Made by a program: the position numbers and the translations under genes. A stretch of 64,000 bases of DNA from Patescibacteria group bacterium (GTDB lineage Bacteria; Patescibacteriota; UBA1384; XYA2-FULL-43-10; 1-14-0-10-43-13): positions 607,234-671,233 of the forward strand of contig JBAZBD010000001.1 in the NCBI GenBank assembly GCA_041671645.1, given 5' to 3'. Below the pieces are notes generated by a model. It was not told where the DNA came from. It saw only the letters and a list, made by a program, of their open reading frames with translations, and made no database searches. Position 1 is the stretch's first letter; every line of letters begins with the position of its first letter. Below, piece by piece: positions 15,478 through 48,435 of this stretch.

Positions 15478-15530
15478 AAGACCATCAATTTCAAGACTTT
15501 ACATCTTGATCGGTGGTCTTTTCGCCTTTT
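15478..15530 (+). terminator. Putative terminator after the 14995..15468 gene
   Basis: ACCATCAA ..loop.. TTGATCGGT stem followed by CTTTTCGCCTTTT. Confidence 0.35.
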
Positions 15531-15686
15531 ATGACACAAAAAAGCCGATCGTGACAGTCATTGACTTCCGGTCAGAATGGAGTAAAGTTAAATCATTAGG
15601 TACGGTTTTCAGAAGGATAATATCTTTTCGAAATCCTATCTGGGAGAGTCGTAGCATACGGGCTCTCTCTTTTTCTATCCAAATTC

Positions 15687-15851
15687 TTATTGCTTGTCGT
15701 ACTTTTCGACAAATGCCTTGACCGCTTCAATATTTTCGAGAACTAATTTTGCTTTTTTCACACCAAACTGAAAAGGATATTGATCTTCTTCATTGTTCTT
15801 CAATACGATCATTTTGTTACCCTTGAACTCGGACTCTTCGACAATAGACAT
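15687..15851 (-). CDS. Hypothetical small protein (54 aa)
   Basis: Not in the track. GGAGGAG RBS 5 nt before the ATG. Translates to MSIVEESEFKGNKMIVLKNNEEDQYPFQFGVKKAKLVLENIEAVKAFVEKYDKQ. It lies directly downstream of the YkgJ-like gene. Confidence 0.4.
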   Translation of the reverse strand: MSIVEESEFKGNKMIVLKNNEEDQYPFQFGVKKAKLVLENIEAVKAFVEKYDKQ

Positions 15852-15923
15852 AAATCTCCTCCAACTAGTTTTTAATATATCGATATTCTACCAAAGCTTC
15901 GATCATTTGGTAAGGGCAAAACG

Positions 15924-16253
15924 TCATTCTGCTATCTCGGCCTTGGATCGTTGAATCAGTTCTATCATCTTGCCATATCGCTGGTCGTCCGATTTGCAGA
16001 AGAATTCTCGACACACCTTCGGCCTGTCGGTGTGGATGCTACAATTATCATTTTCCAGGTATATACAGCCGCCATCATCATTCTTGGCTAGGAGATTGGC
16101 GCCGCATCCGCTTGCCAATTCAAAATCTTCAATGAGATCTATGTCACCAAAAAAGAGCTGGAATTTCCCAGAGCGGTACTCCTGTTCGTCGAGATTGATA
16201 AGGAAATGCTTGCAACAGATGCCGCATCGATCACATGTGTGTTTGTCGCTCAT
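15924..16253 (-). CDS. YkgJ-family CxxCxxCC putative zinc/iron-chelating protein (UPF0153)
   Basis: 109 aa. The N-terminal CDRCGICC is the hallmark of PF03692. Additional Cys at GGCIYL, NCSIH and VCREFFC. Confidence 0.6.
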   Translation of the reverse strand: MSDKHTCDRCGICCKHFLINLDEQEYRSGKFQLFFGDIDLIEDFELASGCGANLLAKNDDGGCIYLENDNCSIHTDRPKVCREFFCKSDDQRYGKMIELIQRSKAEIAE

Positions 16254-16281
16254 GAGGAAGCTTGATTTAAATTAGTACTCG

Positions 16282-17736
16282 TTAAACTTTGCCAAGATCA
16301 ATGTACTCGTCAAACCTGATCTGACTAACAAAATCTGGCATATGGCTGACCATAATCATGGCGCCCTTGTATTGATCGATTGCTTTCGCGATAACTGGAA
16401 GGTGTCTAAAGTTTATGTGGTTGGTCGGCTCGTCCATAATGAGCAGTCCCGGCTCCATCAATACCAATCTGGCGAAGGAGAGGAGGCCTTTTTGGCCTTC
16501 GGAGAGCTCACTAACCTTGTGGCCCATCAATCCGCCGCCGATTAGAAACCCGGCTGCTATCGAGCGCATTGTCTGAATATCCGTGTCCCCCATTTTGGCG
16601 CTGGCGAGAGAATCAAATACCGTCTGTTCGAAATCTAGATTCGAAAAATCCTGGCTGTAATAGCCTATACGTACCCCCTCTAATATTTCTGCTTTTGTAT
16701 TTTGGCCAGAGACTAGAGATCGGAGGAAGGTGCTTTTGCCGATCCCGTTTGGACCGGTCACGATACAGTGCATCCTTTTGCGGATTATCTTATCTACCTT
16801 GAGAGTGTGAACTTCATGGTCGCGAAAGGCTGATAATTCTGTGATTTTGACAATATCGCCGACAATTTCTTGCATCGGGATATCGAACTCTCTAATGGTT
16901 CTGTCCTCGTGCCTGACGTCGATAATGTCTTCTTCCATCTCGGCGGCTTCATCCTTCAGCTTTTTGGCCAACTGGCGCATCTTGCCGCCCTTGTTTGAGA
17001 AGAAGTTTACCTTCTCTTTGCGATCGATGATTGCGCGTCGAAGCTGGGCGTTTTTGCGCTCTTCACTCTCGACTCGCCTCTTGATCTCTTCGACAACTGA
17101 GTAATAGTCGCCAAGGTAATATTCAATCTTGTGTGTAAAATTGTTGAGATAGATGACACCTTCGGTGAAGCAGTTTAGGAAGTCCGCATCATGTGAGATC
17201 ACAATTACGGTTTTCTGATACATAATCAGAAATTCGATTAGGTGATCGATGCCAGACTGATCGAGATTGTTGGTCGGTTCATCGAGCAAGAGAATATCGG
17301 AGTTCTGAATCAAGGCGAAAGCAAGCAAAAGCCTAGCCTGTTGGCCGCCAGACAAATCTCCGACCAAACGATCGGTAGGAACGCTCAAATTAACCACCTC
17401 CATCGCTTTGTGGACCTTGCTGATTAGATCATTTGATTGAGTGGCGAAGGCCATCGCAAAGTATTCCAGGATTGTCTTTGTGAGATCCTGGCGATTCACG
17501 ACCTGCTTGGCCGTAGCGATGGTGATGTCTTTGGCGATGTTGATTTGGCCCTTCTTTGGCTTGAGCTCACCGGTAATCATGTTGAAGAGCGAGCTTTTGC
17601 CAGCGCCGTTTTGGCCCATCAAGGTAATTTTGGAATTTCTGCGCACAGAAAAGCTAGCCTCATCCAGAAGCGGCTTGTCGTGCTGATATTCAAAGGAAAC
17701 TTCGTCAAATCTAAGGATTACTTCTTCATTCATATT
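16282..17736 (-). CDS. ABC-F family ATPase (two tandem ABC domains, no TMD)
   Basis: Start set at the internal ATG (MNEEVILRFDEV...). Walker A GQNGAGKSS and signature LSGGQQARL in domain 1, GPNGIGKST and LSEGQKGLL in domain 2. A charged inter-domain linker and the absence of a membrane domain fit ABC-F. Confidence 0.85.
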   Translation of the reverse strand, partial: NMNEEVILRFDEVSFEYQHDKPLLDEASFSVRRNSKITLMGQNGAGKSSLFNMITGELKPKKGQINIAKDITIATAKQVVNRQDLTKTILEYFAMAFATQSNDLISKVHKAMEVVNLSVPTDRLVGDLSGGQQARLLLAFALIQNSDILLLDEPTNNLDQSGIDHLIEFLIMYQKTVIVISHDADFLNCFTEGVIYLNNFTHKIEYYLGDYYSVVEEIKRRVESEERKNAQLRRAIIDRKEKVNFFSNKGGKMRQLAKKLKDEAAEMEEDIIDVRHEDRTIREFDIPMQEIVGDIVKITELSAFRDHEVHTLKVDKIIRKRMHCIVTGPNGIGKSTFLRSLVSGQNTKAEILEGVRIGYYSQDFSNLDFEQTVFDSLASAKMGDTDIQTMRSIAAGFLIGGGLMGHKVSELSEGQKGLLSFARLVLMEPGLLIMDEPTNHINFRHLPVIAKAIDQYKGAMIMVSHMPDFVSQIRFDEYIDLGKV

Positions 17737-17852
17737 TTGGCCCAAAAATAAAAGGGCGCGATTAACGCCGATGACAATAGTATAACATATTTTATTCAAA
17801 AACACACTCCGCCAGCCGTTGTTGGCGAAATTAAAAACTCAGAGCAAAAAGG

Positions 17853-17942
17853 CTAGCTTCGAGTCAGTGGTCCTAGACCCTTTTGCTTCTTGTTTTTCTT
17901 TGGTTTCTTGACCTCTTTTTTGGCATTTTGATCCTTGCCCAT
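17853..17942 (-). CDS. Possible 29-aa lysine-rich peptide
   Basis: GGAGGG RBS 5 nt before the ATG. MGKDQNAKKEVKKPKKNKKQKGLGPLTRS. It starts 24 nt after the stop of the preceding gene. This is speculative. Confidence 0.2.
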   Translation of the reverse strand: MGKDQNAKKEVKKPKKNKKQKGLGPLTRS

Positions 17943-17966
17943 ATACCCTCCACAAATATTATAAAA

Positions 17967-18242
17967 TTATTCTTTGCTGTCCCAAAACTCTTCGGCCTCG
18001 TCCTCTAGCTTCTCCAGCCGATCGTAGTAATCAGGGAACTCGTTCAGATGTGCCAATGCAATCTTGCCCGTGATAAGTGGATCATCGTTGGTCACATTGG
18101 TCGACTCGTCCACGAGACCGTGCTCAAGCTCGACGTCCATACCTTGGCGAAATTGGTCAACATCAAACTTGTCCCATTCGATTCCCAGTCTCTCCCCTAT
18201 TTCCTGCGATTGTTCAACCGTAAATTTTTTCTTTCCAGACAT
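17967..18242 (-). CDS. Conserved small acidic protein of unknown function (DUF-type; widespread in bacteria and phages)
   Basis: 91 aa. MSGKKKFTVEQSQEIGERLGIEWDKFDVDQFRQGMDVELEHG...NVTNDDPLITGKIALAHLNEFPDYY matches a recurrent uncharacterised family known to me from memory. The exact Pfam ID is not certain. Confidence 0.5.
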   Translation of the reverse strand: MSGKKKFTVEQSQEIGERLGIEWDKFDVDQFRQGMDVELEHGLVDESTNVTNDDPLITGKIALAHLNEFPDYYDRLEKLEDEAEEFWDSKE

Positions 18243-18253
18243 GATTCTCCTTG

Positions 18254-18745
18254 TTAAAATATTTTTTGCTTGCCACAGCCAGACCCTAGGCTAGGCGTTG
18301 TGTCGACAATTTGTGCTTTATTTCGATCGTTATTAGTATTCTCCCCACTATCCTTCGCACCAAAATATGAGACTATTCCGGTAGCTAGCGCCAGGATTGG
18401 GATAATATATAGCCATTTCATTTTGTTATTTTTGTTCCAATGGCTTACTAAATATACCGAAAGAAAGGCAGCAAAAGCAAAGGCGAAGTATGCAAGATAG
18501 TAATCGGTACGTGAAATATTTACAATCAGGCTGAAATATCCATATAATCCCCAGACAGAGAAAACAACTATGCCCGCTTTTGTTAAAAAATCCAAGAGCG
18601 CCTTTTTGCGGAGGGAGTTGACTATGATACGAATTATCACGAAGCCAACAAACAAAGCCACTAGCACATCAGTGGCACCGATCGTGAGAAAATAGATGCT
18701 GAAAAATAAAGGGTCGGGAGAGATACAATAAAGTTTTTTGGACAT
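18254..18745 (-). CDS. Hypothetical integral membrane protein
   Basis: 163 aa with 4-5 predicted TM helices. No recognisable motif. Confidence 0.5.
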   Translation of the reverse strand: MSKKLYCISPDPLFFSIYFLTIGATDVLVALFVGFVIIRIIVNSLRKKALLDFLTKAGIVVFSVWGLYGYFSLIVNISRTDYYLAYFAFAFAAFLSVYLVSHWNKNNKMKWLYIIPILALATGIVSYFGAKDSGENTNNDRNKAQIVDTTPSLGSGCGKQKIF

Positions 18746-18830
18746 TTCTTCCCTTCTTATCTAAGACATGCATTCCTGCGAACGACTGCTCTATATATAT
18801 TTTCTCCTATTTTTCTTTTATAATCAAATT

Positions 18831-19361
18831 ATGGAAAACGTAGAGTTTAGAAAACTGACGCAGAAAGATGAGAATGCCTATAATATTTATATAGGTGAAT
18901 TTCTTGATGCTGGCGAAGAAGTTATCCCTCGATCTATATTTAAAACAAATTTATCTTTCAAACAATGGCTCAAACAAAGACATGACTTTGAGAAAGGTAT
19001 TAATTTGCCAGTAGATAGGGTGAAGGCCACCACTTTCTTTCTAATCAGAAAACACGACGGAAAAATTCTTGGCGCGCTCGACTTACGGCATGAGCTAACT
19101 GAGCATTTATTGAAATTTGGCGGTAATATTGGATATGGAGTTGCGCCGTCCGAGAGGAAGAAAGGTTATGCCAATTATATGCTTGCAACAGCGTTGCCCA
19201 TATGCAAAGGATTGGGATTAGAAAAAGTTCTAATAACTTGCAACAAAGAAAATACCGGCTCCGCCCGAACAATCCAAAAGAACGGCGGCGTTTTAGAAAA
19301 CGAAGTCGACTATGATGGTGTGACTAGGCAAAGATATTGGATAGATTTGAATTCTGAATAA
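18831..19361 (+). CDS. GNAT-family N-acetyltransferase
   Basis: Start set at MENVEFRKL, with TATAAT 10 nt upstream (possibly leaderless or a short leader). The acetyl-CoA-binding core is ...GYGVAPSERKKGYANYML... Confidence 0.7.
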   Translation: MENVEFRKLTQKDENAYNIYIGEFLDAGEEVIPRSIFKTNLSFKQWLKQRHDFEKGINLPVDRVKATTFFLIRKHDGKILGALDLRHELTEHLLKFGGNIGYGVAPSERKKGYANYMLATALPICKGLGLEKVLITCNKENTGSARTIQKNGGVLENEVDYDGVTRQRYWIDLNSE

Positions 19362-19371
19362 ACTGTAATGT

Positions 19372-19408
19372 AAAAAAAATCCCCCCGATGTTGTCGGGGG
19401 GATTTTTG
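19372..19408. terminator. Bidirectional Rho-independent terminator (GNAT gene and rplO convergent)
   Basis: A8 run, then ATCCCCCCGA tgttg TCGGGGGGAT (perfect 10-bp stem), then TTTTTG. Confidence 0.8.
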
Positions 19409-19415
19409 TGAGTAC

Positions 19416-19922
19416 TTATTTGGTTTCTGTCTTCTTGACTGTTTTCTTAGGAGCCTTTGGAGCGGCTGGAGTCTTTTCTACCTTTGGAGCTTTCTCTTCA
19501 GCAACTTCGGCTTTGGCAACTTTTTTTGCCGGAATTTTGACTGATTTGGAGACTTTGACTTCTTTTGAGAATTCAACTGACTTGGTGAGCTCACCATTGT
19601 TTAGAATCTTGGCAGCTTCGAATATTCGGATCATGCCCTTCTCAACCAGCAATTTGTGAGTAACTGTCTCGCCATCTTTGAAAGCGGCAGAAATCTGGTC
19701 GAGAGAAATAACAATTGGTTTGCGCTTGTGGGAGGTGAATCCTGGAAGCTTTGGCAATCTCATTGAAAGTGGAGTCTGACCACCCTCAAATCTCTTTGGC
19801 AGGTTAAAACCACTGCGTGATCTCTGTCCTTTGGTACCGCGACCGGCGGTCTTACCCTGACCAGCTGCGATTCCGCGACCGACGCGTTGTTTTGTTTTAG
19901 ATTTTGTGGAAATTAGGTTCAT
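19416..19922 (-). CDS. rplO: 50S ribosomal protein L15 with a Lys/Ala/Pro-rich C-terminal extension
   Basis: 168 aa. KQRVGRGIAAGQGKTAGRGTKGQRSRSG is the uL15 signature. The C-terminal roughly 45 aa are low complexity. Confidence 0.95.
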   Translation of the reverse strand: MNLISTKSKTKQRVGRGIAAGQGKTAGRGTKGQRSRSGFNLPKRFEGGQTPLSMRLPKLPGFTSHKRKPIVISLDQISAAFKDGETVTHKLLVEKGMIRIFEAAKILNNGELTKSVEFSKEVKVSKSVKIPAKKVAKAEVAEEKAPKVEKTPAAPKAPKKTVKKTETK

Positions 19923-27641: not shown

Positions 27642-28196
27642 TTATTTCGAATAAATCCTCAAGATTGCGCCATTGTTTCCTGGAATTGCGCCAGAGATCA
27701 GAATTGTCTCTTTGTCGATGTCGACAACTTTGAGATTTTGAACAGTGATGACAGTAGCGCCCATATGGCCGGCCATGCGGCGACCCTTGACCACACGCTG
27801 TGGTTGCTGAGCACCGATTGAGCCTGGCTCTCTCACATTGTTACCACCGTGAGATTCAGGACCACGTTTGAAGCCATGTCTCTTGATCGTACCAGCAAAA
27901 CCCTTGCCCTTGGTCACACCCTGTACGGCAACTGATTCGCCAGCGACGAGATCCACTTCGAGATTTTGACCAACTTTGTATTGATCAGCATTTTCGATGC
28001 GGAACTCAGTAATTTTGAGGTCAACTTCTTTCTTGCCCTTCTCTTTGACAGATTTGATTTGAATAGCAGAATATCCGTCCTTATCGGCGGTTTTGATAGC
28101 AGAAACGCTAGATGGAAGGATCTTTACAACAGTGACGGCAATATTCTTGCCCTCAGCGTCGAAGACTCTCGTCATATTCACTTTTTGACCTAGCAT
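27642..28196 (-). CDS. rplC: 50S ribosomal protein L3
   Basis: Start chosen at MLGQKVNMTRVF to match the uL3 N-terminus (M.G..GKKVGMTR.F). The track ORF extends to a GTG at 28238. No clear SD is present, so the start is uncertain by +/-15 codons. Confidence 0.85.
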   Translation of the reverse strand: MLGQKVNMTRVFDAEGKNIAVTVVKILPSSVSAIKTADKDGYSAIQIKSVKEKGKKEVDLKITEFRIENADQYKVGQNLEVDLVAGESVAVQGVTKGKGFAGTIKRHGFKRGPESHGGNNVREPGSIGAQQPQRVVKGRRMAGHMGATVITVQNLKVVDIDKETILISGAIPGNNGAILRIYSK

Positions 28197-28289
28197 GAAC
28201 TTCATAAGTTGCAGAACCATACGAATAGCGAATTTCACTAATTACGAATGGCAAATAATTTAATACCTTACCGCTGGATATAATTGTTT

Positions 28290-28486: not shown

Positions 28487-28562
28487 TGGCTCCCGAGACA
28501 GGACTTGAACCTGCGACCAGTGGCCTATAAACCACTTGCTCTACCAACTGAGCTACTCGGAA
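28487..28562 (-). tRNA. tRNA gene (CCA-encoded). Isotype uncertain: most like tRNA-Ile2/Met class, possible anticodon UAU, non-canonical 8-nt anticodon loop.
   Basis: Minus-strand reading: UUCCGAG-UA-GCUCAGUUGGUAGAGC-A-AGUGG-UUUAUAGG-CCACU-GGUC-GCAGG-UUCAAGU-CCUGU-CUCGGGA-G-CCA. The acceptor, D and T arms are perfect. The anticodon stem AGUGG/CCACU leaves an 8-nt loop. The backbone resembles E. coli ileX. Confidence 0.7.
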
Positions 28563-28575
28563 AAACCAATGAAAC

Positions 28576-28653
28576 TGGAGCCTCCTGCAGGGGTTGAACC
28601 TGCGACCTCTGTCTTAAATAGACAAGTGCTCTGGCCGACTGAGCTAAGGAGGC
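28576..28653 (-). tRNA. tRNA gene (CCA-encoded). Isotype uncertain: Lys(UUU)-like backbone with an irregular anticodon arm.
   Basis: GCCUCCU-UA-GCUC-AGUCGGCCA-GAGC-AC-UUGUC-UAUUUAA-GACAG-AGGUC-GCAGG-UUCAACC-CCUGC-AGGAGGC-U-CCA. It is 78 nt. The arms are perfect except the anticodon arm, which needs an extra nt at position 26 and gives A at position 33. Confidence 0.7.
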
Positions 28654-29019: not shown

Positions 29020-29060
29020 TTATGACTTTATAGACTTTACGAACTTTATAACTTTTGACT
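29020..29060. repeat. ACTTT-rich short tandem repeat (site A of a dispersed family)
   Basis: TATGACTTTATAGACTTTACGAACTTTATAACTTTTGACT. GTCGAAAGTCATAAAG lies just upstream at 28987-29002. Confidence 0.7.
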
Positions 29061-29079
29061 AGTCGATCTAGATCGACTA
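29060..29079. terminator. Perfect 20-bp palindrome TAGTCGATCTAGATCGACTA overlapping the rpsJ stop codon
   Basis: An exact reverse-complement palindrome. It is a possible 3' stem-loop or protein-binding site and is followed by the A/T-rich repeat. Confidence 0.4.
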
Positions 29080-29400
29080 CATTTTGATTTCGATATCTAC
29101 GCCGTGTGGAAGGTCCAAGCTCATAAGATTGTCGATCGTCTTTGGAGTTGGGTTAATAACATCGATCAATCTCTTGTGTGTGCGCATTTCGAACTGTTCG
29201 CGAGCATCCTTGTGAACATGAGGCGATTTCAAGACGGTAATCTTGCACTTCTCAGTTGGCAGTGGGATTGGACCAGCTACTGTGGCCCCGCTTCTGATCG
29301 CGGTTTCGATAATCTGCTCACACGATTTGTCGATAATTCGATGATCGTATGCCTTCAGGCGTATTCTGATTTTTTGTCGTACTGCTTGCTTCTCAGCCAT
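29077..29400 (-). CDS. rpsJ: 30S ribosomal protein S10
   Basis: 107 aa. [41 protein letters not shown] is a canonical uS10. Confidence 0.95.
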
Positions 29401-30696: not shown

Positions 30697-32772
30697 TTAT
30701 TTCTTGCGCTTTTCGATGATCGTCTGTGCGACGTTGTTTGGAACCTCTGCATAGTGATCAAATTCCATCACTGCGGCCGCTCGTCCCTGTGACATTGAGC
30801 GTAAGCTGGTGGTATATCCAAACATTGAAGCGAGAGGAACAAATGCGTTGATGAGCTTGATACCGTTTGGTCTGTCTTCCATCTTGTTGATTTGACCACG
30901 TTTGGCGTTCAAGTCCCCGATAACATCGCCCATGAAGTCTTCAGGGGTAGTTACTTCAACTTTCATGACAGGCTCGAGCAATACTGGCTTGGCTTTCTTG
31001 AAACCGTCCTGGAAGGCCATAGAAGCGGCGATTTTGAAGGCAACCTCAGAAGAGTCAACTTCATGGTAAGAACCGTCATATACCTCTGCTGTGACGTCAA
31101 CAACTGGGTAACCAGCAATAACACCACGGCCCATAGCTTCCTTGATACCCTCTTCGATCGGTTTGATATATTCACGAGGGATAGCGCCACCAACGATAGA
31201 GTTGATGAAGACAAATCCTGCACCCTGCTCAGAAGGCTTGAGTCTGAGCCAGCAGTGACCATATTGACCACGACCACCGGTCTGACGAATGTATTTACCC
31301 TCTTGAGTGACTTCCTCACGAATAGTTTCGCGGAAAGCTACCTGTGGAGCACCGACATTGGCTTCGACTTTGAACTCGCGTTTCATACGATCTACGATGA
31401 TCTCGAGGTGAAGTTCGCCCATACCAGCGATAATCGTCTGAGAAGTTTCCTCATCAGTTCGAACACGGAAGGTAGGGTCTTCCTCGGCCAATCTCTGTAG
31501 AGCGATACCCATTTTTTCCTGATCAGCTTTGGTCTTTGGCTCAATCGCAATATCGATAACTGGCTCTGGGAAGGTAATCTTCTCGAGAATTACAGGGGAT
31601 GTGAGATCGCAAAGCGTGTCACCAGTAGTTGTATTAGAAAGTCCGACAGCGGCAGCGATTTCACCAGCGTAGACTGTGTCTACTTCCTCACGGTGATTGG
31701 CATGAAGTCGGACGATTCGGCCGATTCTCTCTTTGTTGCCAGTAGTAGAGTTTAGAATATATGAACCCTTGGTCAAAATACCGCGATAAAGGCGGAAGAA
31801 GATCAATTTACCAACAAATGGGTCAGTTGCGACCTTGAAAGCAAGTGCGGCAAATGGCTCGTTGTCGACTGGATTAACGTCAACTTCTGCATCAGTCTTG
31901 GGGTCAATACCACGTGCTGGTGGAACATCGAGAGGAGAAGGAAGATAGGCTACGATTGCATCAAGCAAGGAAACTGCGATGACACCGCGTCCGTCGCCAC
32001 CCAATACTGGGTAGAATTGGCCAGAGATACAAGCTTTACGAATAAGTATTTTCAGCTCTTCGTTTGAGATTGATTCGCCGCCAAGATATTTCTCCATGAG
32101 CGCGTCATCATACTCAACAACTTTCTCAACCAGCTTCTCGCGCCACTCATTGGCCTTGTCTACCATATCAGCTGGGATCTCAACTTCTTCGAGCTTGTGA
32201 TCTTTGTAATCCTTGTAAGTGTAGGCTTTCATGTCGACGAGATCGACGATACCGTTGATCGCCTGCTCAAATCCGATTGGGATCTGAATTGGTGAGGCAT
32301 TCTTGGAAAGGCGAAGGTGCATAGACTCGAGTGAGCGATAGAAGTCGCCACCGGTTTGATTGATCTTGTTGATGAAGCACATACGAGGAACGTTGTACTT
32401 GTCGGCTTGGCGCCAGACAGTCTCAGACTGTGGCTCTACGCCCATCTTGCCATCGAAGATGACTACTGCACCGTCGAGTACACGAAGAGAACGCTCAACC
32501 TCTACAGTGAAGTCTACGTGGCCTGGAGTATCGATAATATTGATGCGGTGATCTTTCCAAAAACAGGTGGTAGCAGCTGAGGTGATGGTAATACCACGCT
32601 CACGCTCTTGCTCCATCCAGTCCATGGTCGCAGCACCTTCATGAACCTCGCCGATCTTGTGGACGCGGCCGGTGGTGTACAAAATACCCTCAGTGACGGT
32701 GGTCTTGCCAGCGTCAATGTGAGCGATTGTACCAATATTTCGAACTCGGTCTAGTGTGTAGTCTCTTGCCAT
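30697..32772 (-). CDS. fusA: Elongation factor G
   Basis: 691 aa. [21 protein letters not shown]. All five EF-G domains are present. Confidence 0.97.
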
Positions 32773-32993
32773 AAATTTCCTAAGTAATTCTTAATTTTTA
32801 TTCGTTAATTTTTATTCAAATTCAAATTTGTAATTCTAAATTAATAATTGATTAGAAATTAATAATTAGGAACTAAAAATTTGATTGCCCTAGCAATCTA
32901 AAATTTTCCCCATTTCCGTTCAATATTAACACAATTATTCCCAAAGTGTCAATCGTGATTGAACGTGCCACAAATAGGCCATAAACGACAATT

Positions 32994-33017
32994 CCCTCAC
33001 CCGCTGTGGGGTGAGGG
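32994..33017. terminator. Hairpin CCCTCACCC-gctgt-GGGGTGAGGG downstream of the 33037..33366 gene
   Basis: 9-bp perfect GC-rich stem with a weak U-tract on the minus strand. Confidence 0.4.
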
Positions 33018-33036
33018 ACTGCAATCCTTATGGGGA

Positions 33037-33366
33037 CTATTGGTTCACGGTTTCGACCGTGATTTCGGTGACCGTCGTGGTCACCACTTTTCTGAATCTC
33101 AGCACGGTGACGGGGGGAAGCTCCGGCTCTGGTCTCTTCGAGACGGGCCGAATCATCGCCATTCGTGCTGCGACGGCCTTTGCCCGAACCTCGGGCTGGA
33201 GAATCTCACTGTACTGGGTGGCGAGATCCAAGATCTGCGCCTTTGCAGCACGTGTCTTCATCGACACAAGCAATTGAATAAGTTCAATCGCCTCGTCGAC
33301 CCCTCCGGGTTTTGACCCTTTTACTACGATTTGGCCAGCAATCTCGCTAGCCGTCTGCTTCTGCAT
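33037..33366 (-). CDS. Hypothetical protein, GC-rich gene (start refined)
   Basis: Start at MQKQTASEIAGQ..., with GGAGG 9 nt upstream. The track's longer start at 33423 would run into the shared promoter. 109 aa with no recognised domain. GC is about 55%. Confidence 0.5.
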   Translation of the reverse strand: MQKQTASEIAGQIVVKGSKPGGVDEAIELIQLLVSMKTRAAKAQILDLATQYSEILQPEVRAKAVAARMAMIRPVSKRPEPELPPVTVLRFRKVVTTTVTEITVETVNQ

Positions 33367-33413
33367 TTTCTGCATCCTCCGTTTTGTATTACCGCTATGC
33401 TTGCGGTAGACCA

Positions 33414-33460
33414 ATTCTAGCACAAATCACCTTGACATGTCAAGGGAAAAGGAGTATAAT
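33414..33460. promoter_or_regulatory. Divergent promoter pair sharing the palindromic -35 TTGACATGTCAA
   Basis: Plus strand: TTGACA at 33432-33437, a 17-nt spacer, TATAAT at 33455-33460. Minus strand: TTGACA (reverse complement of 33438-33443), an 18-nt spacer, TAGAAT (reverse complement of 33414-33419). Confidence 0.5.
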
Positions 33461-33519
33461 ATTAATTATCCAAAGAGCAGTTCGTGCTTGGAGGAAGATT
33501 TCTAAAGGAGGTAACGCTC

Positions 33520-33996
33520 ATGCGTTACACATTAATAATCCTGGCCATCGTGGCTATTATCCTTCTGAGTGGGTGTTCTGGCCTACAGGCTAAGTTCCCA
33601 CGGATCGAAAGGGTCCGCATGGACCGACCCTCGTCCTCCTTTATCGTTGTGACCAATAGGGCAGACGGCTATGTAAATGCCGAATGCTACTATCTGGTCG
33701 ACCATCTTGGCCAGCCAACGTCCAACGCGGCTGGTACGAAACATGTCGTTTTCACGACAAATCAGGTCAAAGTGATCGGGTTTGATCGTGAAAGAGGTCA
33801 GGCAATATTTGTCGTGACATCAGGCTATTGGGACTCGCTCCCCACAGCGGTCCCTGTTTATGTGGCGGCCCAGTATTCAAACTGGGTCTGGGATTATTCC
33901 CACCCGCAAAACAATGATCCTTCGACGTATGACGCCAGCACCTCTGGCTTGTTCCGATTTGATGTCGGAGCAACCGAGGGTGTCTCGGTATATTAG
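33520..33996 (+). CDS. Hypothetical lipoprotein, GC-rich gene
   Basis: AAGGAGGT lies 8 nt before the ATG at 33520. MRYTLIILAIVAIILLSGCSG is a signal peptide with the lipobox LSGC. 158 aa mature protein, rich in aromatics and Asn, with no known domain. Confidence 0.6.
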   Translation: MRYTLIILAIVAIILLSGCSGLQAKFPRIERVRMDRPSSSFIVVTNRADGYVNAECYYLVDHLGQPTSNAAGTKHVVFTTNQVKVIGFDRERGQAIFVVTSGYWDSLPTAVPVYVAAQYSNWVWDYSHPQNNDPSTYDASTSGLFRFDVGATEGVSVY

Positions 33997-34017
33997 ACCC
34001 AATTTAATTGGGATCAG

Positions 34018-34080
34018 GCAGATAACAGGAAGTTATCTGCACTGAAAAATGATCTTCTCTAGCAGGAGATCATTTTTTAT
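34018..34080 (+). terminator. Tandem hairpins ending in a T-run (Rho-independent terminator of the lipoprotein gene)
   Basis: GCAGATAAC-agga-aGTTATCTGC, then AAAAATGATCTtCT..AGgAGATCATTTTTT. Confidence 0.6.
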
Positions 34081-34130
34081 TTACACAATTCAACCACGCA
34101 ATTGAATTATTCATTCAAAACCTATAAATC

Positions 34131-34172
34131 ATGTCTATGATTTTGAAACGATCGTTTCTTATTCTTAGACAG
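34131..34172. repeat. 42-bp direct repeat copy 1 (contains the perfect palindrome GAAACGATCGTTTC), overlapping the 3' end of the PaaX-like gene
   Basis: ATGTCTATGATTTTGAAACGATCGTTTCTTATTCTTAGACAG. About 40 of 42 positions are identical to the copy at 34748-34789. It contains an internal TGTCTA...TAGACA inverted repeat. Confidence 0.8.
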
Positions 34173-34719
34173 ACTTTGAGAGAATTCCAAGTATTGATTT
34201 GTTGATACTGCTTTGCTCTGCGATGAAGCTCGCAACGTATTCTTCGACTTTGTACTCAATCGATGCCAGCTCAACAAATTCGGCCGCGTCTTTGTCGGTG
34301 ACCCACAAGCTCCTTTGGATTTGTTTGAAACCCATCCGTTTCAGAACCTTACGGAAATTATTTCGGCGAGTGCTCAAATATTCTGGGATATCGAAAGAAA
34401 CAAGTAAGAAACGATCAATTAGCTTGTTATGCTTCACAATTTTGTCGGCCACCTTCAATCTTGCCTTGTTCGTAAAAACGATAGACTCCTGCGCGTCCTG
34501 CCTGATCTCAATATATTTTCGCCTTTTCATGGAGTCAATAAATTTGCAGAAATTCCGATAGGTCAGTGTTGGTTCAGCATAGTAAAGCTGTCTGTAAACT
34601 TCTTTCCGTCCTCCTGCAATGATCAAAAATGACTCGGTTAACCCGAGGACAGAATCCAAAACCCTTTCCAAGGTAAGCGACGCCGCTTGAGCAATATTTT
34701 CTTTTAACTCCTTCTCCAT
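34165..34719 (-). CDS. PaaX-like putative transcriptional regulator (N-terminal wHTH-like region plus C-terminal Cas2-like domain)
   Basis: 184 aa. The C-terminal FLLVSFDIPEYLSTRRNNFRKVLKRMGFKQIQRSLWV follows the Cas2 beta1-alpha1-beta2 pattern (xLVxYDI....RR.KVxKxLxxxGxRxQxSVF). The N-terminal roughly 100 aa (FCKFIDSMKRRKYIEIRQD...SIVFTNKARLKV) look like a winged helix. The domain order matches PaaX. The call was made by eye. Confidence 0.4.
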   Translation of the reverse strand: MEKELKENIAQAASLTLERVLDSVLGLTESFLIIAGGRKEVYRQLYYAEPTLTYRNFCKFIDSMKRRKYIEIRQDAQESIVFTNKARLKVADKIVKHNKLIDRFLLVSFDIPEYLSTRRNNFRKVLKRMGFKQIQRSLWVTDKDAAEFVELASIEYKVEEYVASFIAEQSSINKSILGILSKSV

Positions 34720-34747
34720 ACATTAATCTTATTACGATTTATTATAT

Positions 34748-34789
34748 ATGTCTATGATTTTGAAACGATCGTTTCTTTTTCATAGACAG
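34748..34789. repeat. 42-bp direct repeat copy 2 (palindrome GAAACGATCGTTTC at 34762-34775), between the PaaX-like gene and paralog 1
   Basis: ATGTCTATGATTTTGAAACGATCGTTTCTTTTTCATAGACAG. It lies 12 nt upstream of the -35 of the paralog-1 promoter and 29 nt upstream of the PaaX-like start on the other strand. Confidence 0.8.
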
Positions 34790-34800
34790 TTTGCAAATGA

Positions 34801-34829
34801 TTGCTAATAACGAGCCGATTTGGTATAGC
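34801..34829 (+). promoter_or_regulatory. Sigma70-like promoter TTGCTA-17-TATAGC for paralog 1
   Basis: Part of the duplicated unit GAGCCGATTTGGTATAGCT shared with the paralog-2 upstream region. Confidence 0.4.
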
Positions 34830-34862
34830 TTTATTAAGATCAAACCTCAAAGGAGAAATTTG

Positions 34863-35417
34863 ATGCAAAATTGGATCGAAGAGATAGCCAATAAAATTGG
34901 AGTCGAGTTTTCTCGGCATCCCCTCACTCTATTACTGCTTGACCAGATCAAACTGGTCGAAGAGTCCGATTGTGTACACAAAGACAATCTTCTCGAGACA
35001 TTCGAAGTGTTCGTCTCAGCAGAGCACGACACCGCCTATATGGCGCTTGATTGGCTGGCCGAGGCAAGCGAAGGCGAGTGCAGCGAGCCAGAATGTGTAC
35101 AGCACGCCTCGATAATGTTGGTTGCCATTTTCACCGGAAAGGGAAGTATCCTCAACGTACTGGCTTCAGGCGACAAATGTCTGTATACGATTAAGCACTT
35201 CTACGAAAAAAATCGAAGGAACAAAGAGTTGAAGGCTTTCAACCGCCTGTGTCTTGCCGCTCTCAGACATGCAGGAGTAGACTTCTCCCAATGTCTTGAA
35301 ATAGATGAATCCTCCTGGGGATTTATTAAAATTGCGGAGGCGCACAAATGGATTGTTGATAGTAGTTATTATGACCGTTTCGAAGCGAATACCAAGAAAA
35401 AACCCGAGGGTTCTTAG
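34863..35417 (+). CDS. Hypothetical protein, tandem paralog 1
   Basis: Start at MQNWIEEIANK, with AAAGGAGAAA upstream. 184 aa. It shares conserved blocks with paralog 2 (HPLT..L+DQI..., P.CVQ+AS++L.A+FT.K, LCLA.L.HAGVD.SQC). No family was recognised. Confidence 0.6.
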   Translation: MQNWIEEIANKIGVEFSRHPLTLLLLDQIKLVEESDCVHKDNLLETFEVFVSAEHDTAYMALDWLAEASEGECSEPECVQHASIMLVAIFTGKGSILNVLASGDKCLYTIKHFYEKNRRNKELKAFNRLCLAALRHAGVDFSQCLEIDESSWGFIKIAEAHKWIVDSSYYDRFEANTKKKPEGS

Positions 35418-35452
35418 CAATAGCAAGAATCCTTTTTTATTTCTCTCCAAAA

Positions 35453-35481
35453 TTGCAAACCATGAGCCGATTTGGTATAGC
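35453..35481 (+). promoter_or_regulatory. Sigma70-like promoter TTGCAA-17-TATAGC for paralog 2
   Basis: Same architecture and core sequence as the paralog-1 promoter. Confidence 0.4.
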
Positions 35482-35520
35482 TGTATTAGAGATCAAATCC
35501 ATACAAGAAGGAGGCATCTG

Positions 35521-36069
35521 ATGCCCGGATTGCCTGAATATCTCAAACAGATCAGCACCCCTTTCGCGGAGCATCCGCTCACGAATTTCCTGATTGACCA
35601 GATCGAAATGGCCAATTTGACCAATTTTCCTGGCAAGCACAATTTACTTGCCACTTTCGAAGAGTATGTCCTCGCGAGAGGCTATAATGTTTACCTTGAA
35701 AATTTGGCGAACGACAGCCGCGGCAAAAGAAATCAGCCCAAATGCGTTCAGTACGCCTCGCTGATTCTGACCGCCCTTTTCACCGAGAAGGCAGTCGTAC
35801 TCAATTCGTTTTATCAGGGCAATTCAAGCCTGGACGCGCTTATAGACTTTTACGATGAAAATCGTGAAAATGATCAGCTCAAAGACCTAACCTGGCTATG
35901 TCTTGCCGGACTTGCACACGCAGGCGTCGACCTGTCCCAATGCTATGGCATAGCAAATTGGCAAACGGAGGGTCTGATCGAATCACCGCTCCAGTGGATT
36001 ATCGCCGGAACATATTCCATCCGTCTGGAGGCTAATAAGCAACCAAAACCCGAGGATTCTTCGCAGTAG
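35521..36069 (+). CDS. Hypothetical protein, tandem paralog 2
   Basis: Start at MPGLPEYLKQ, with AAGGAGG upstream. 182 aa. It is a paralog of 34863..35417 and is followed by a similar terminator hairpin. Confidence 0.6.
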   Translation: MPGLPEYLKQISTPFAEHPLTNFLIDQIEMANLTNFPGKHNLLATFEEYVLARGYNVYLENLANDSRGKRNQPKCVQYASLILTALFTEKAVVLNSFYQGNSSLDALIDFYDENRENDQLKDLTWLCLAGLAHAGVDLSQCYGIANWQTEGLIESPLQWIIAGTYSIRLEANKQPKPEDSSQ

Positions 36070-36090
36070 CAGGAATCCTTTTTTAATACC

Positions 36091-36116
36091 AAAAAACGGC
36101 CGAAGCCGTTTTTTGT
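36091..36116. terminator. Bidirectional Rho-independent terminator AAAAAACGGC-cgaa-GCCGTTTTTTG
   Basis: Perfect 8-bp stem with a GNRA-like loop, flanked by an A-run and a T-run. Confidence 0.75.
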
Positions 36117-36205
36117 CTGAAATAGTTGTCTGAGGCCAAAGAAATCAAAATCTTTAATTGCTTTGGTCCCAGTCGATGCTTTGTGCGATCGACCGGATAG
36201 TTTCC

Positions 36206-36850
36206 CTACTCAGGCTCGCTGACCCATAGGCCGCGATTCTGAAGGGAGGTCTTGTAACTGTCGTAGGCTCTGTCAGCGGCCCCTGGAGCGGTGGTGATAT
36301 CGAATGTGTCCCAGATATCACCGGTTTGGGGTAATGCCTTGCATTCCTCGTAAAATGCAGACCTACTCCCCTCTTCGGGGAAAGTGAATTCAATGAACTC
36401 AACCATCCGTGATTTGTCCCCTTCGAACATCCAGCTGCTGAACTTGTTGGTCCAGCAATAGGCTTCGCGGTCGAAGGGTTTCAGCCGCAGGTAGGCTTCA
36501 TACGCTTGCCTTTCGGCAACGTGGCTCAGGTATACCGCCAATTCGTACTGGTCGGTATAACCGTTATACTTTCGGGCCGGATTGTGCTCGGTGTACTGCT
36601 TATCAAGCAAGGCCACCTGGCGGGTGCGCTCGCGATACTCGTCATAGACTCGTATTGCGAAAGAAATCCTTGCCCAATCGGGCGTTTGCGCAGCGATAAT
36701 TTGCTGCGACTTCTGCTGCTCGATGGCAGCTCTGGCTTGTGCTTTTTCAGCACCAACGCGTTGTCCATACTCATAGCACACGCTACCAGTGATGGCGCAA
36801 ATTACAGCCATAATGACCAACTGGCCAAAATGAATTCCTATTCCCTTCAT
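36206..36850 (-). CDS. Hypothetical membrane-anchored protein, GC-rich gene (start refined)
   Basis: Start at MKGIGIHFGQLVIMAVICAITG (AAAGGAGA lies 5 nt upstream). The track's 297-aa form would overlap rpsG. 214 aa with one N-terminal TM helix and no known domain. Confidence 0.55.
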   Translation of the reverse strand: MKGIGIHFGQLVIMAVICAITGSVCYEYGQRVGAEKAQARAAIEQQKSQQIIAAQTPDWARISFAIRVYDEYRERTRQVALLDKQYTEHNPARKYNGYTDQYELAVYLSHVAERQAYEAYLRLKPFDREAYCWTNKFSSWMFEGDKSRMVEFIEFTFPEEGSRSAFYEECKALPQTGDIWDTFDITTAPGAADRAYDSYKTSLQNRGLWVSEPE

Positions 36851-36983
36851 TACTGTCTCCTTTTTCGCATTTCGCGGGATAGATGTACTTATATTACTAC
36901 ATTTTGTCCTATTTGTCAATGGTAAATACAAAAATGGCTCCGGGTGAGCGGAGTCATTTTCTATATTCTGTGAATCTATTTGA

Positions 36984-37460
36984 TTAGAATCTGGCGAAGT
37001 GGGCGAAAGCCTTGTTGGCCTCGGCCATTCTGTGAGTATCTTCCTTCTTCTTGATCGCGTTACCTTCACCTTTGAAGGCGTTGATGATCTCAGAAGCAAG
37101 CTTCTCGTTCATAGGGCGACCCTTCTGGCTGCGAGCTGCGGCGATAACCCAGCGCATAGCGAGAGTATTTCGTCTGTCCTTGCTAACTTCCATAGGCACC
37201 TGGTAGTTTGCGCCACCGATACGTTTGGATTTGACCTCGACGATTGGACCAACATTTTTGATCGCCTGATCGAAGATTTCCATCGGATCGAGCTTGAGCT
37301 GTTCGCTAGCTTTCTCAAAAGCCATGTAGACGATTCTCTCGGCGATGGTCTTCTTGCCGTTGACCATAATGTAATTGATGAGCTTGGCGATCACCGGGCT
37401 GTTAAATTTAACATCCACACCGATCGAGCTCTTTCTGATTTTGACGTGACCTCTTGGCAT
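36984..37460 (-). CDS. rpsG: 30S ribosomal protein S7
   Basis: 158 aa. MPRGHVKIRKSSIGVDVKFNSPVIAKLINYIMVNGKK is a canonical uS7. Confidence 0.95.
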   Translation of the reverse strand: MPRGHVKIRKSSIGVDVKFNSPVIAKLINYIMVNGKKTIAERIVYMAFEKASEQLKLDPMEIFDQAIKNVGPIVEVKSKRIGGANYQVPMEVSKDRRNTLAMRWVIAAARSQKGRPMNEKLASEIINAFKGEGNAIKKKEDTHRMAEANKAFAHFARF

Positions 37461-37515: not shown

Positions 37516-37552
37516 GCTTTACTTTTTAACTTTATACTTTATAACTTTTAAC
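37516..37552. repeat. ACTTT-rich short tandem repeat (site B), rpsL-rpsG intergenic
   Basis: CTTTACTTTTTAACTTTATACTTTATAACTTTTAACT. Confidence 0.6.
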
Positions 37553-37965
37553 TATTCTTTCCCTGCTTTGGCGCCGTACTTGCTACGAGACTGTTTGCGG
37601 CCTTTGACACCGGCCAAGTCGAGCTTGCCACGAACGATATGATATCGCATACCTGGAAGGTCTTTCACACGACCACCACGGATTACTACAACTGAGTGCT
37701 CCTGGAGATTGTGGCCTTCACCACCGATATAAGCGTTTACCTCATAACCATTGGTTAATCTGACACGGGCGAATTTACGCAAAGCTGAGTTTGGTTTCTT
37801 TGGTGTCATAGTACCAACTTTGATACAAACACCGCGTTTTTGAGGACAACCAAGCTTAACCGGCTTGTTCTGAAGAAAGTTAAAAGTATTCTTCAAAGCG
37901 GTTGTCTTTGATTTTCTAGTGGTTTTCTGTCGACCCTGTCTGACTAATTGATTGATTGTTGGCAT
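37552..37965 (-). CDS. rpsL: 30S ribosomal protein S12
   Basis: 137 aa. [14 protein letters not shown]...[16 protein letters not shown]. Confidence 0.95.
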
Positions 37966-47161: not shown

Positions 47162-47256
47162 TTGAGTCCTTAAGGTTAAAAGTCATAAAGTCGAAAGTGC
47201 TATTACAATAACATAAACACAGAAAAATATCTACCCGCCGAATCTGACGGCTCGAT

Positions 47257-47296
47257 GGACTTTATGGACTTTATAGACTTTATGAACTTTATGAAC
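47257..47296. repeat. 9-bp tandem repeat GGACTTTAT x ~4.4 (site C of the ACTTT family), upstream of obg
   Basis: GGACTTTAT GGACTTTAT AGACTTTAT GAACTTTAT GAACT. The related AAGTCATAAAGTCGAAAGTG lies at 47176-47199. Confidence 0.8.
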
Positions 47297-48435
47297 TACC
47301 TGAGATCGAAATAAACCCAGTGGCCATCGACAATCTTTTCAAAATGAAGATGCGGGCCGGTAGAGCGGCCGGAATTGCCTGAGAGGCCGATAGTTTCGCC
47401 AGCAGAGACACTATCGCCTGGACTAACGCTAATCTGGCTCAAATGCGCGTAACGAGTGGCGACGCCATTACCGTGCGAAACGACAATTTCGTTTCCATAG
47501 CCGCCAGACCAGCCAGTTGAGACCTGAATCACGACACCGCTTGCCGCTGAGCGAACAGGTGTGCCGACACTAACAACGTAATCGATCCCAGTATGGCTAC
47601 GCCCGACACCGCGAGAAATATATGAATAAGCCACTGGCACAGAAAGGTTGGAATCACCTCCCTGATAGTCTCCGCTGTATGTTCTGCTTGAGGTCGATTG
47701 TCTGGCCACAGTATTTCGAGTCGCGGCAGCAACTAGGGCTTGCTTCGCCTTAGCCTTCTGTGCGATAAGGGTTGCCGATGTATCGTCGCCCTTTTTCGGC
47801 ACCTTGAGTCTCATACCTGGCTTGATCGCGTTGACGTTGTCAATATCGTTCACGTATTTCAAGGTTGTAAGTTTGAGATTAAATTTCCAAGCCAACACAG
47901 TTAGCGTGTCGCCAGGTCTGATGATGTAGGCGATTTCTGAGCCTGAATTATCTGGAAGCGGCTCAATTCTCGCTGTGATTTGTGTGTCTAAGGGGGCGAT
48001 ATTTCCGACAAAGCCGTCTTTCGAGGATAGGGCCATGTTACTTTTGTCGATTAATATGCCATCATTTTGCAATAAAACAGTGTATGAATCTACCGAACTA
48101 GCCAAAGTAATTTCATCTTCGGGACCAACCGCGACAAGCTTATCTTGAAGAGTGTCAGCTCTGGCCGTTTCATTAAAATTAGACAATGTCACGAGCAACA
48201 AAAGGGCCACCAAAGCAAAGTGAGGTAGAAATTTATTAGAAAGGAACGCCTGAACTGAGTTGCTTATCGCCTGTGCGATCGCATTGAAGAATCCTCTTGC
48301 TTGACCTGTTTTGCTTCCCACAGCATCAACGCATTCAGATATCATCTTGCCGGTATTTGATATAAATTCAATTTTTTGTTTAGTCTCTTTCGTCTCTTGC
48401 GACGAAGGAGGCTCGTCTTGTAAAATCAAGGCCAT
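47296..48435 (-). CDS. LysM domain-containing M23 family metallopeptidase (membrane-anchored)
   Basis: 379 aa. N-terminal TM helix. LysM: GDTLTVLAWKFNLKLTTLKYVNDIDNVNAIKPGMRLKVP. M23: HTGIDY...GNSGRSTGPHLHFE. Confidence 0.9.
   Translation of the reverse strand: MALILQDEPPSSQETKETKQKIEFISNTGKMISECVDAVGSKTGQARGFFNAIAQAISNSVQAFLSNKFLPHFALVALLLLVTLSNFNETARADTLQDKLVAVGPEDEITLASSVDSYTVLLQNDGILIDKSNMALSSKDGFVGNIAPLDTQITARIEPLPDNSGSEIAYIIRPGDTLTVLAWKFNLKLTTLKYVNDIDNVNAIKPGMRLKVPKKGDDTSATLIAQKAKAKQALVAAATRNTVARQSTSSRTYSGDYQGGDSNLSVPVAYSYISRGVGRSHTGIDYVVSVGTPVRSAASGVVIQVSTGWSGGYGNEIVVSHGNGVATRYAHLSQISVSPGDSVSAGETIGLSGNSGRSTGPHLHFEKIVDGHWVYFDLR

Follow-up and report, generated by a model that had tools for sequence, protein, structure and literature searches.

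A probable long-standing variable islet at the rpsG-fusA junction of a Patescibacteria genome, with a mini-PaaX gene bracketed by twin palindromes

The order rpsL-rpsG-fusA-tuf of the str operon is treated as near-universal in bacteria. In the 64-kb stretch of a Patescibacteria group bacterium analyzed here, whose genome is close to Berkelbacteria (contig JBAZBD010000001.1, positions 607,234 to 671,233; hereafter the window), rpsG and fusA are separated by 4,211 bp (window positions 32773 to 36983) that carry six open reading frames (ORFs) on mixed strands, which we call A to F. On balance, we find it probable that this block is an islet of long standing whose content varies across the lineage, a mosaic that includes old parts and not one inserted module. 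This judgment applies jointly to the whole explanation, i.e., to the islet, to the transcriptional autonomy of its cassettes, and to a gene, C, whose product would recognize the two palindromes that bracket its own coding sequence.

Organization of the rpsG-fusA interval

ORF starts were refined from the sequence and by comparison with L001, an identical Logan contig on which genes had been called independently. The genes of the interval and its two flanks are as follows.

30697..32772, minus strand: fusA, encoding elongation factor G (EF-G), downstream flank; Pfam finds all five domains (GTP_EFTU, EFG_III, EFG_IV, EFG_C)
33037..33375, minus strand: A, 112-residue cytoplasmic protein without assigned function
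33520..33996, plus strand: B, 158-residue lipoprotein with a signal peptide and an LLSG-C lipobox read from the sequence; the LPAM_1 match is weak
34165..34719, minus strand: C, 184-residue mini-PaaX with a predicted N-terminal winged helix and a Cas2-like PaaX_M domain
34863..35417, plus strand: D, 184-residue orphan protein, predicted all-alpha, with the ribosome-binding site AAAGGAG
35521..36069, plus strand: E, 182-residue paralogue of D, with a ribosome-binding site
36206..36850, minus strand: F, 214-residue protein with an N-terminal membrane anchor
36984..37460, minus strand: rpsG, encoding ribosomal protein S7, upstream flank; Pfam Ribosomal_S7, E=1e-58

An earlier sequence-only reading of the window had described about 4.2 kb with six genes unrelated to translation, and the gene calls and Pfam agree with it. 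None of the six ORFs matched a translation-related family in Pfam, NCBIfam, PADLOC or PHROGs, and C alone had domain matches there. Its individual descriptions also held: a GC-rich divergent pair with one lipoprotein (A and B, whose G+C contents at third codon positions, GC3, are 0.65 and 0.57), a PaaX-like regulator (C, PaaX_M at E=1.3e-12), two tandem paralogs (D and E, 42% identical) and a GC-rich membrane-anchored protein (F, GC3 0.61). The other 63 ORFs of the window, a background in which low-GC3 ribosomal protein genes predominate, have a mean GC3 of 0.468 +/- 0.055 and a maximum of 0.604. A and F thus lie above all of them, B lies at +1.8 standard deviations, and C, D and E are ordinary. 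A search of the block against Rfam, at gathering and E-value thresholds, returned nothing credible.

Promoters and terminators were located by a consensus scan (scored out of 12) and by reading of the sequence.

32923..32952, minus strand: fusA promoter-like site, TTGACA-N18-(TG)TAATAT, scan score 10/12 plus an extended -10; both hexamers are kept in L002, the nearest genome
32993..33018, minus strand: terminator-like hairpin after A, 10-bp stem and T-rich tail, kept in L002
33414..33460: back-to-back promoters of A and B, whose -35 boxes share the palindrome TTGACATGTCAA; scan scores 11/12 and 12/12
34005..34083: double hairpin after B, a candidate bidirectional terminator
34754-34726, minus strand: C promoter-like site from the scan, TAGACA-N17-TAAGAT
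34800..34836, plus strand: D promoter-like leader, TTGCTA-N17-TGgTATAGC
35409..35439, plus strand: D terminator, a hairpin followed by T6, read from the sequence; it parallels the E terminator as a direct repeat
35452..35488, plus strand: E promoter-like leader, a repeat of the D leader
36054..36113: E terminator and bidirectional hairpin AAAAAACGGCCGAAGCCGTTTTTT
36891..36919, minus strand: F promoter-like site from the scan, TTGACA-N17-TAATAT
36931..36960: terminator-like hairpin at the end of the rpsL-rpsG transcript, found by the scan on both strands

D and E each have their own ribosome-binding site, leader and hairpin with a T-run. Their leaders, of the form TTGCwA-N17-TGgTATAGC, are 86% identical over 37 nt and share a 19-nt core that occurs at these two sites only in the window. 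The hairpin after E, folded as 36085-36118, reaches -12.1 kcal/mol (z=-6.2). From these signals, the block reads as six monocistronic cassettes, with fusA-tuf as a separate transcription unit. The str operon, whose physical split the sequence-only reading had described, would then be split transcriptionally as well. The further statement of that reading that each unit has its own promoter and terminator stands for the promoter-like sites, which are present for all six genes, and for the terminators of all but C, for which we found no canonical terminator.

The fusA leader of about 150 nt (32773-32922) is very AT-rich, with nested inverted and tandem repeats at 32785-32884. It is shorter in L002, has no Rfam match, and may be regulatory.

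The junction is open across Patescibacteria

Around S7 homologues we collected 80 loci, each representing a species, determined how far S7 lies from EF-G in every one, and scored the junction as open when the gap exceeded 350 nt. It was open in 23 of the 38 loci labelled as Patescibacteria lineages, with gaps of up to 6.8 kb, and in one of 30 loci from other bacteria, where the typical distance is 16 nt. The cargo at the junction is lineage-specific and unrelated between lineages. Eight loci labelled Saccharibacteria, or Patescibacteria in the case of L047 (L024, L034, L035, L039, L042, L047, L073 and L074), have a partly conserved set of housekeeping genes of their own in the gap, with a NUDIX hydrolase in seven loci, an ABC-F ATPase in three, a ClpB-like AAA+ protein and an AAA_28 protein.

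Relatives that share parts of the block are listed below, with the amino acid identity of their core proteins to those of the window.

L002 (RpoC 97%, S7 96%): F, B and A, then fusA, in the same order and orientation, without E, D and C
L082 (RpoC and S7 90%): rpsG, a 121-residue membrane protein, then a C gene (76% identical) between two palindromes
L087 (S7 75%): after rpsG, a D/E homologue, the one other member known, followed by a 175-residue ORF that is unrelated
L004 and L006 (S7 69-72%): a B-like lipoprotein at the junction
L104 (S7 66%): a 6.6-kb gap that includes a C-family gene

RpoC, S12, S7 and EF-G, which flank the block, are 96-100% identical to their L002 orthologues, and the corresponding values are 48-50% for F, about 37% for B and 68-70% for A. 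The B-like lipoproteins at the junction in L002, L004 and L006 are 32-40% identical to B. A recombination breakpoint at the junction was rejected, since the core DNA has diverged from L002 to the same extent on either side (87-88% nucleotide identity).

The best-conserved DNA of the islet is the 79-nt double hairpin after B, which is 92% identical to L002 (4331-4409) and 86% to L087 (about 38-79 on the plus strand of the locus, 2435-2476 in its reverse complement) and surpasses the flanking genes. Its first stem shows compensatory changes (GATAAC/GTTATC, GATGAC/GTCATC, GCGAC/GTTGC), and the DNA of 34000-34085 folds at -19.6 kcal/mol (z=-8.7). In L087 the loop of the second hairpin of the pair is enlarged by an insertion of about 90 nt. 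The bidirectional hairpin next to the E terminator, AAAAAACGGC..GCCGTTTTTT, stands after F in the window and directly after rpsG in L082 and L087, indicating that cassette borders coincide with terminator hairpins.

A sequence of events consistent with these data begins with the loss of operon coupling at the rpsG-fusA junction of Patescibacteria. The rpsL-rpsG transcript would stop at the hairpin at 36931-36960, and fusA-tuf would restart from its own promoter at 32923-32952. With coupling lost and fusA under its own promoter, the spacer could gain, lose or swap short monocistronic cassettes, each with its own promoter and, in all but C, its own terminator, presumably through insertions and deletions at the hairpin-rich cassette borders. 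The present cargo would be of three kinds: F, B and A, vertically inherited and fast-evolving; D and E, which are tandem members of an orphan family known from this junction only; and C, a mini-PaaX whose dimer would bind the flanking 42-nt palindromes.

The sequence-only reading had instead regarded the block as one of several accessory modules landed in core operons of this genome. What stands of that view is the autonomous cargo unrelated to translation; a recent, genome-specific landing does not. That a horizontally acquired island recently entered a normally contiguous str operon here is very unlikely, and the reading is largely refuted by synteny as compared in these loci. It could appeal to the GC3 of A, F and B, above or nearly above that of all 63 other ORFs of the window, to cargo unrelated to translation, and to the absence from L002 of the 2-kb segment carrying E, D and C. 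The check on composition that the earlier reading had called for found A and F, and to a lesser degree B, to deviate from a background rich in ribosomal protein genes, but these outliers are precisely the genes that L002 keeps in order and orientation, whereas C, D and E, which vary in their presence, have an ordinary composition. The same reading had named an insertion already ancestral in relatives as evidence against itself, and this is in part what we found: at the junction L002 has F-B-A, L004 and L006 have B-like genes, L082 has C, and L087 has a D/E homologue. C and D/E homologues are thus present there in genomes less closely related than L002, which makes a deletion the simplest account of why L002 lacks E-D-C. 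This indel spans about 34087-36133, and no target duplication was found at its junctions. Nor did the block show hallmarks of mobility: Pfam, NCBIfam, PHROGs and PADLOC gave no integrase, recombinase or transposase among the six ORFs, and there were no att direct repeats or target-site duplication at the block ends and no adjacent tRNA gene. A search of the viral contigs in IMG/VR yielded no relatives of C. We saw no close relative lacking the block with an intact target site, L002 having F, B and A there; among the loci examined, contiguous rpsG-fusA junctions occurred only in more distant Patescibacteria, and the junction is open across the phylum.

Our literature search found no paper on an rpsG-fusA split in Patescibacteria. 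The nearest was that of Brandis et al. (2019; PMC6735719), which describes insertions of unrelated genes that separate core transcription and translation operons in some lineages. The islet resembles these insertions in that unrelated genes part such operons. There, the breaks lie between operons in Gammaproteobacteria, whereas the present one lies inside the str operon, is phylum-wide in Patescibacteria, and has contents that turn over.

Taken together, the str arrangement would be routinely broken in Patescibacteria, its rpsG-fusA junction forming a slot with a changing content. This bears on operon-based annotation and on synteny-based binning and phylogeny of Patescibacteria genomes, as well as on how reduced genomes coordinate the synthesis of translation factors.

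C belongs to a family of short PaaX-like proteins

C matches PaaX_M (PF20803) with 48 bits against a cut-off of 24, and, at lower significance, Cas2 (PF09827, E=2.7e-7; TIGR01573, 27.1 bits against 24.5; PADLOC Cas2 models also match). PaaX_M was matched by all 41 family members scanned. An AlphaFold 2 model built from 83 sequences (mean predicted local distance difference test score, pLDDT, 88) comprises a long N-terminal helix, a winged helix at about residues 37-82 and a ferredoxin-like domain. Foldseek searches with this model placed E. coli PaaX (8a39; probability 0.98 over 142 columns) and Rv0674 at the top, followed by Cas2 proteins. The winged-helix region is modelled as helices followed by a beta-hairpin. 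It does not match the Pfam model of the PaaX N-terminal domain, and only three of the 41 members matched any winged helix-turn-helix family. C ends with its Cas2-like domain, at residue 184, and has no PaaX_C match.

At E<=1e-5 the family numbers at least 801 proteins, which with few exceptions are about 180 residues long. Every source name that gives an organism reads 'Patescibacteria group bacterium', and the family appears restricted to that group. Three longer relatives of about 255 residues (L135, L150 and L154) have an extra C-terminal region like that of full-length PaaX. Twin palindromes with a CGGCCG or CGGTCG core bracket these genes too, so that the trait exceeds the mini form.

C resembles PaaX, the phenylacetate catabolism repressor of E. 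coli W (PDB 8A39), in its Cas2-like domain and, as far as the model shows, in a winged helix N-terminal to it. It differs in having 184 residues only, without the C-terminal domain, in the twin palindromes around its gene, and in its neighborhood: no paa genes were found beside C or among 69 neighbors of C-family genes, which are unrelated housekeeping genes (RecO, PolA, LigA, TGT, GrpE etc.) without a constant partner. Neighbor synteny persists in some groups, such as the recO-adjacent L091, L107 and L112, and also L084 with L090. The numbers of C-family genes near rpsG were too small to claim an enrichment there.

C also resembles the CRISPR Cas2 and VapD ferredoxin-fold nucleases: its C-terminal half matches Cas2 models and superposes on Cas2 structures, and the Asp at the end of strand 1 (D110 in C) is invariant in the C family. 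In contrast to Cas2, C is twice as large and has a fused putative DNA-binding domain; there is no cas1 beside it and no CRISPR repeat-spacer array in the window. Public annotation, including that of NCBI and JGI, labels these proteins 'Cas2', 'PaaX' or hypothetical. The 'Cas2' label is misleading for mini-PaaX proteins. Our literature search found no paper on PaaX-like proteins in Patescibacteria or on a palindrome-bracketed mini-PaaX family.

Twin palindromes flank C and many of its homologues

C lies between two direct copies of a 42-nt palindrome, ATGTCTATGATTTTGAAACGATCGTTTCTT(A/T)TTC(T/A)TAGACAG, that are 95% identical to each other, each being itself a dyad with the pattern TGTCTAwGA-N5-GAAACGATCGTTTC-N4-TCATAGACA. 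These are the only copies in the window, where none would be expected by chance.

34748..34789: pal1, the upstream copy, over the -35 region of the C promoter and just upstream of the D promoter
34131..34172: pal2, the downstream copy, overlapping the C stop codon

The pal1 dyad is 49 nt before the ATG of C, and pal1 ends 11 nt upstream of the D -35 hexamer. The same layout surrounds the 76%-identical C orthologue in L083 and L082. In the DNA alignment with L083, the palindromes are 93-95% identical, the C coding sequence about 73%, and the 28-nt stretch between pal1 and ATG about 50%; homology with the window stops at the outer edge of pal1.

We then scanned metagenomes with an alignment of the C family and applied one flank-repeat procedure to all 77 loci obtained. 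In about 47 further loci, a C-family gene (27-76% identical) lies between two direct copies of a 30-45-nt dyad. The median flank-repeat score was 25.5 for C-family genes and 8 for 64 neighboring genes. Aligned, the dyads have an invariant CG-NN-CG core (about 2 bits per position), followed by spacers (positions 8-11) rich in A/T, the coding strand having A on either side of the dyad, and by arms (positions 12-19) that vary between loci while being symmetric and common to both copies of one locus. The upstream dyad lies at a median of 44.5 nt from the start codon and the downstream dyad 28.5 nt after the stop codon; the gap between pal1 and the start codon has a median of 27 nt, and that between the stop codon and pal2 a median of 9 nt. 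A TANNNT -10-like box is found 5-9 nt before the ATG in 16 of 39 loci, the window among them, a geometry of leaderless transcripts. Loci of 12 kb contain two or three copies, the third occurring in L096, L104 and L109; in L104, pal2 is 36 nt before the next gene, which encodes a small zinc-ribbon protein.

The possibility that the palindromes act as RNA, e.g., as terminator hairpins, was rejected. Their DNA folds are weak, at -5.5 and -8.9 kcal/mol, and are interrupted by an A:A internal loop, which favors a protein-binding duplex site over a terminator, and we found no RNA-level signature, G:T mismatches not being clearly enriched over A:C (26 versus 18). Arm similarity correlated weakly with the similarity of both the N-terminal and the C-terminal domains (rho 0.12-0.13) and did not discriminate between them.

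Directly after pal2, at 34088-34131 on the minus strand and in the orientation of C, is a 14-codon ORF (MNNSIAWLNCVNKK) whose start is 37 nt from the dyad. A TATAGG box precedes the ATG of this ORF by 6 nt, and the reading frame closes at the B terminator. Its geometry is like that of pal1 and C, a resemblance that could be due to chance.

A probable autoregulator, and what else the unit might be

PaaX is a repressor that binds palindromic operators. From its predicted fold and the arrangement of its locus, C is most likely a dimeric DNA-binding protein that recognizes its own flanking dyads and autoregulates via pal1. As for an autoregulator, the palindrome lies over the gene's own promoter and is conserved above the surrounding DNA, and its position is family-wide. 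The winged-helix/Cas2-like dimer would bind both pal1 and pal2. Because pal1 overlaps the -35 region of C, binding there should regulate C itself, whose transcript appears to be nearly leaderless. In this scheme pal2 would be a second site that serves in looping or insulation, or as an operator of the downstream gene where one exists. Pairs of near-identical sites that lie hundreds of bp apart, bracket a regulator with one of them over its promoter, and cooperate through looping are found in lambda cI with OL/OR and among the lac and gal auxiliary operators. Those cases differ from ours, in which the pair brackets a single 0.55-kb gene, most loci have no evident outward regulated genes, and looping is conjectural.

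Several observations weigh against the combined explanation of islet, autonomous cassettes and self-bracketed regulator. On the side of the islet, the locus sample was picked by S7 similarity and is phylogenetically unbalanced, the direction of the E-D-C change (loss in L002 versus gain here) rests on three short contigs, and the promoters and terminators are consensus matches only. On the side of C, pal2 precedes no gene in the window, B being convergent, and no target besides C is visible in the 64 kb. Many palindrome pairs are 100% identical over 39-44 nt including asymmetric imperfections, which suggests copying or gene conversion and not independent selection on two operators. Finally, six polar residues of the Cas2-like domain (D110, E113, R119, R123, Q135 and S137) are strictly conserved in the family and would also fit an enzymatic role.

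These last points are shared by a different proposal, which we consider unlikely, that palindrome-C-palindrome is an autonomous selfish or mobile single-gene unit. C would be a Cas2-like, metal-dependent nuclease or recombinase that acts at CG-NN-CG, its winged helix would read the variable arms, and the copies would be identical through copying at insertion or through conversion. The unit is compact and self-contained, with short median spacings, and has no constant neighbor gene; its pairs are often identical down to asymmetric positions, its core is invariant where its arms vary, the position of the Cas2 catalytic Asp does not vary in the family, nor do other polar residues, and homology with L083 begins at the outer edge of pal1. 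RAYT proteins with their REP palindromes (REPINs) and the ends of IS200/IS605 elements offer a parallel, a small gene flanked by a cognate palindrome that co-varies with it. Unlike these, C has no HUH/Y1 motif (no HxH) in its sequence, and its palindromes are not dispersed as in REP families but occur as two, rarely three, direct copies of a CG-NN-CG dyad of about 40 bp. Mobility also fits poorly with the loci themselves. Neighbor synteny is kept at about 50% neighbor identity and the arms track phylogeny, as under vertical descent. We found no empty site with a solo palindrome, L002 lacking the palindrome altogether, and no near-identical units in different contexts. Diverged pairs keep arms and core and let the spacers drift, as under selection on two binding sites, and third copies sit in front of other genes. 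The homologous Cas2-like domain of PaaX is not known as a nuclease. It is a long shot that this unit of about 0.68 kb is an unrecognized minimal autonomous element of Patescibacteria, its protein nicking, cleaving or recombining DNA at its own CG-NN-CG centers. If it were, it would be a selfish, addiction or defense module, or an excisable cassette, and not a conventional transcription factor.

We regard as quite improbable a third proposal, in which C, D and E form one system, e.g., a regulator with two effector or immunity paralogues of a defense- or toxin-antitoxin-like type, C controlling D. Such a system would account for pal1 between C and D, 11 nt from the D -35 hexamer, for the joint presence or absence of the three genes relative to L002, and for the matches of C to PADLOC Cas2 models. 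Yet the D/E homologue of L087 has a similar promoter layout without C or palindrome, and the C orthologue of L082 is preceded by an unrelated membrane protein, with no D; we therefore treat C and D/E as independent cassettes. In addition, none of the 69 C-family neighbors resembles D or E, E shares the promoter type of D without a palindrome, and neither D nor E has a PADLOC or PHROGs match.

Very few regulators are known from Patescibacteria. A mini-PaaX autoregulator with twin palindromes would provide a simple protein-DNA recognition system with a conserved core and variable arms, and, if it is more than an autoregulator, the unit could be a new small genetic element. The family-wide palindrome-gene-palindrome architecture outweighs the block itself, which is modestly interesting, as a subject for follow-up.

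The other islet genes

The D/E family is exceedingly small. A HMMER search of 1.84 billion representative proteins with a D+E profile yielded three members, D, E and the L087 homologue, all beside rpsG and from two lineages. The AlphaFold 2 model of D is all-alpha with a pLDDT of 54 (low reliability). Sequence searches of the PDB gave no match for F, B or D/E, and a spurious single-TPR match for A.

F and B are probably surface-exposed or extracytoplasmic, as judged from their anchor and lipobox, and their fast divergence would fit host- or phage-facing roles. At 37-50% identity to L002 against 96-100% for the core, they are candidate determinants of host or phage interaction in an episymbiotic lineage.

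Also very unlikely is that the islet genes are ribosome- or EF-G-associated factors or fusA regulators kept beside rpsG and fusA for that reason: D/E are seen beside rpsG only, B-like lipoproteins occur at the junction in four lineages and A is immediately upstream of fusA in two genomes, but B and F are a lipoprotein and a membrane-anchored protein, both probably extracytoplasmic, F, B and A are 37-68% identical between genomes whose flanking core is 96-100% identical, unlike conserved translation factors, each gene has its own promoter and terminator signals (C without the latter), no translation-related domains were found, and other lineages hold unrelated cargo at the junction.

Other observations in the window

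The second split core junction of the sequence-only reading, between rplO (19416-19922) and secY (12113-13384), is indeed present. The gap of about 6 kb (13385-19415) holds seven ORFs, encoding a GNAT acetyltransferase, an unassigned protein of 163 residues, a DUF5661 protein, a double-ABC (ABC-F-like) ATPase, a CxxCxxCC protein, another unassigned protein and a YfiH/Cu-oxidase_4 protein. Most of these ORFs have a high GC3 (0.54-0.60).

A third break in the ribosomal clusters is formed by two tRNA genes (28487-28653, minus strand) between rpsJ (29077-29400) and rplC (27642-28238). One is a tRNA-Lys(UUU). In the other, at 28490-28562 (Rfam, 53.7 bits), the anticodon loop is 8 nt long, UUUAUAGG; ARAGORN gives a four-base anticodon, 'tata', and no amino acid identity. 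This gene might encode a tRNA-Ile(UAU) whose loop is expanded, or else a tRNA of the frameshift type.

Short tandem arrays of the ACTTTATA or TAAAGTY type, with periods mostly of 7 to 9 nt and some rows of 14-15 nt, are present at 37520-37553, 29020-29055, 47255-47297, 62006-62033 and 62634-62660. At least two of them closely precede promoters: one lies ahead of rpsL, the other ahead of TTGACT-N17-TATATT, the promoter of the tRNA pair. The arrays are candidates for UP-element-like or factor-binding sequences of strong promoters.

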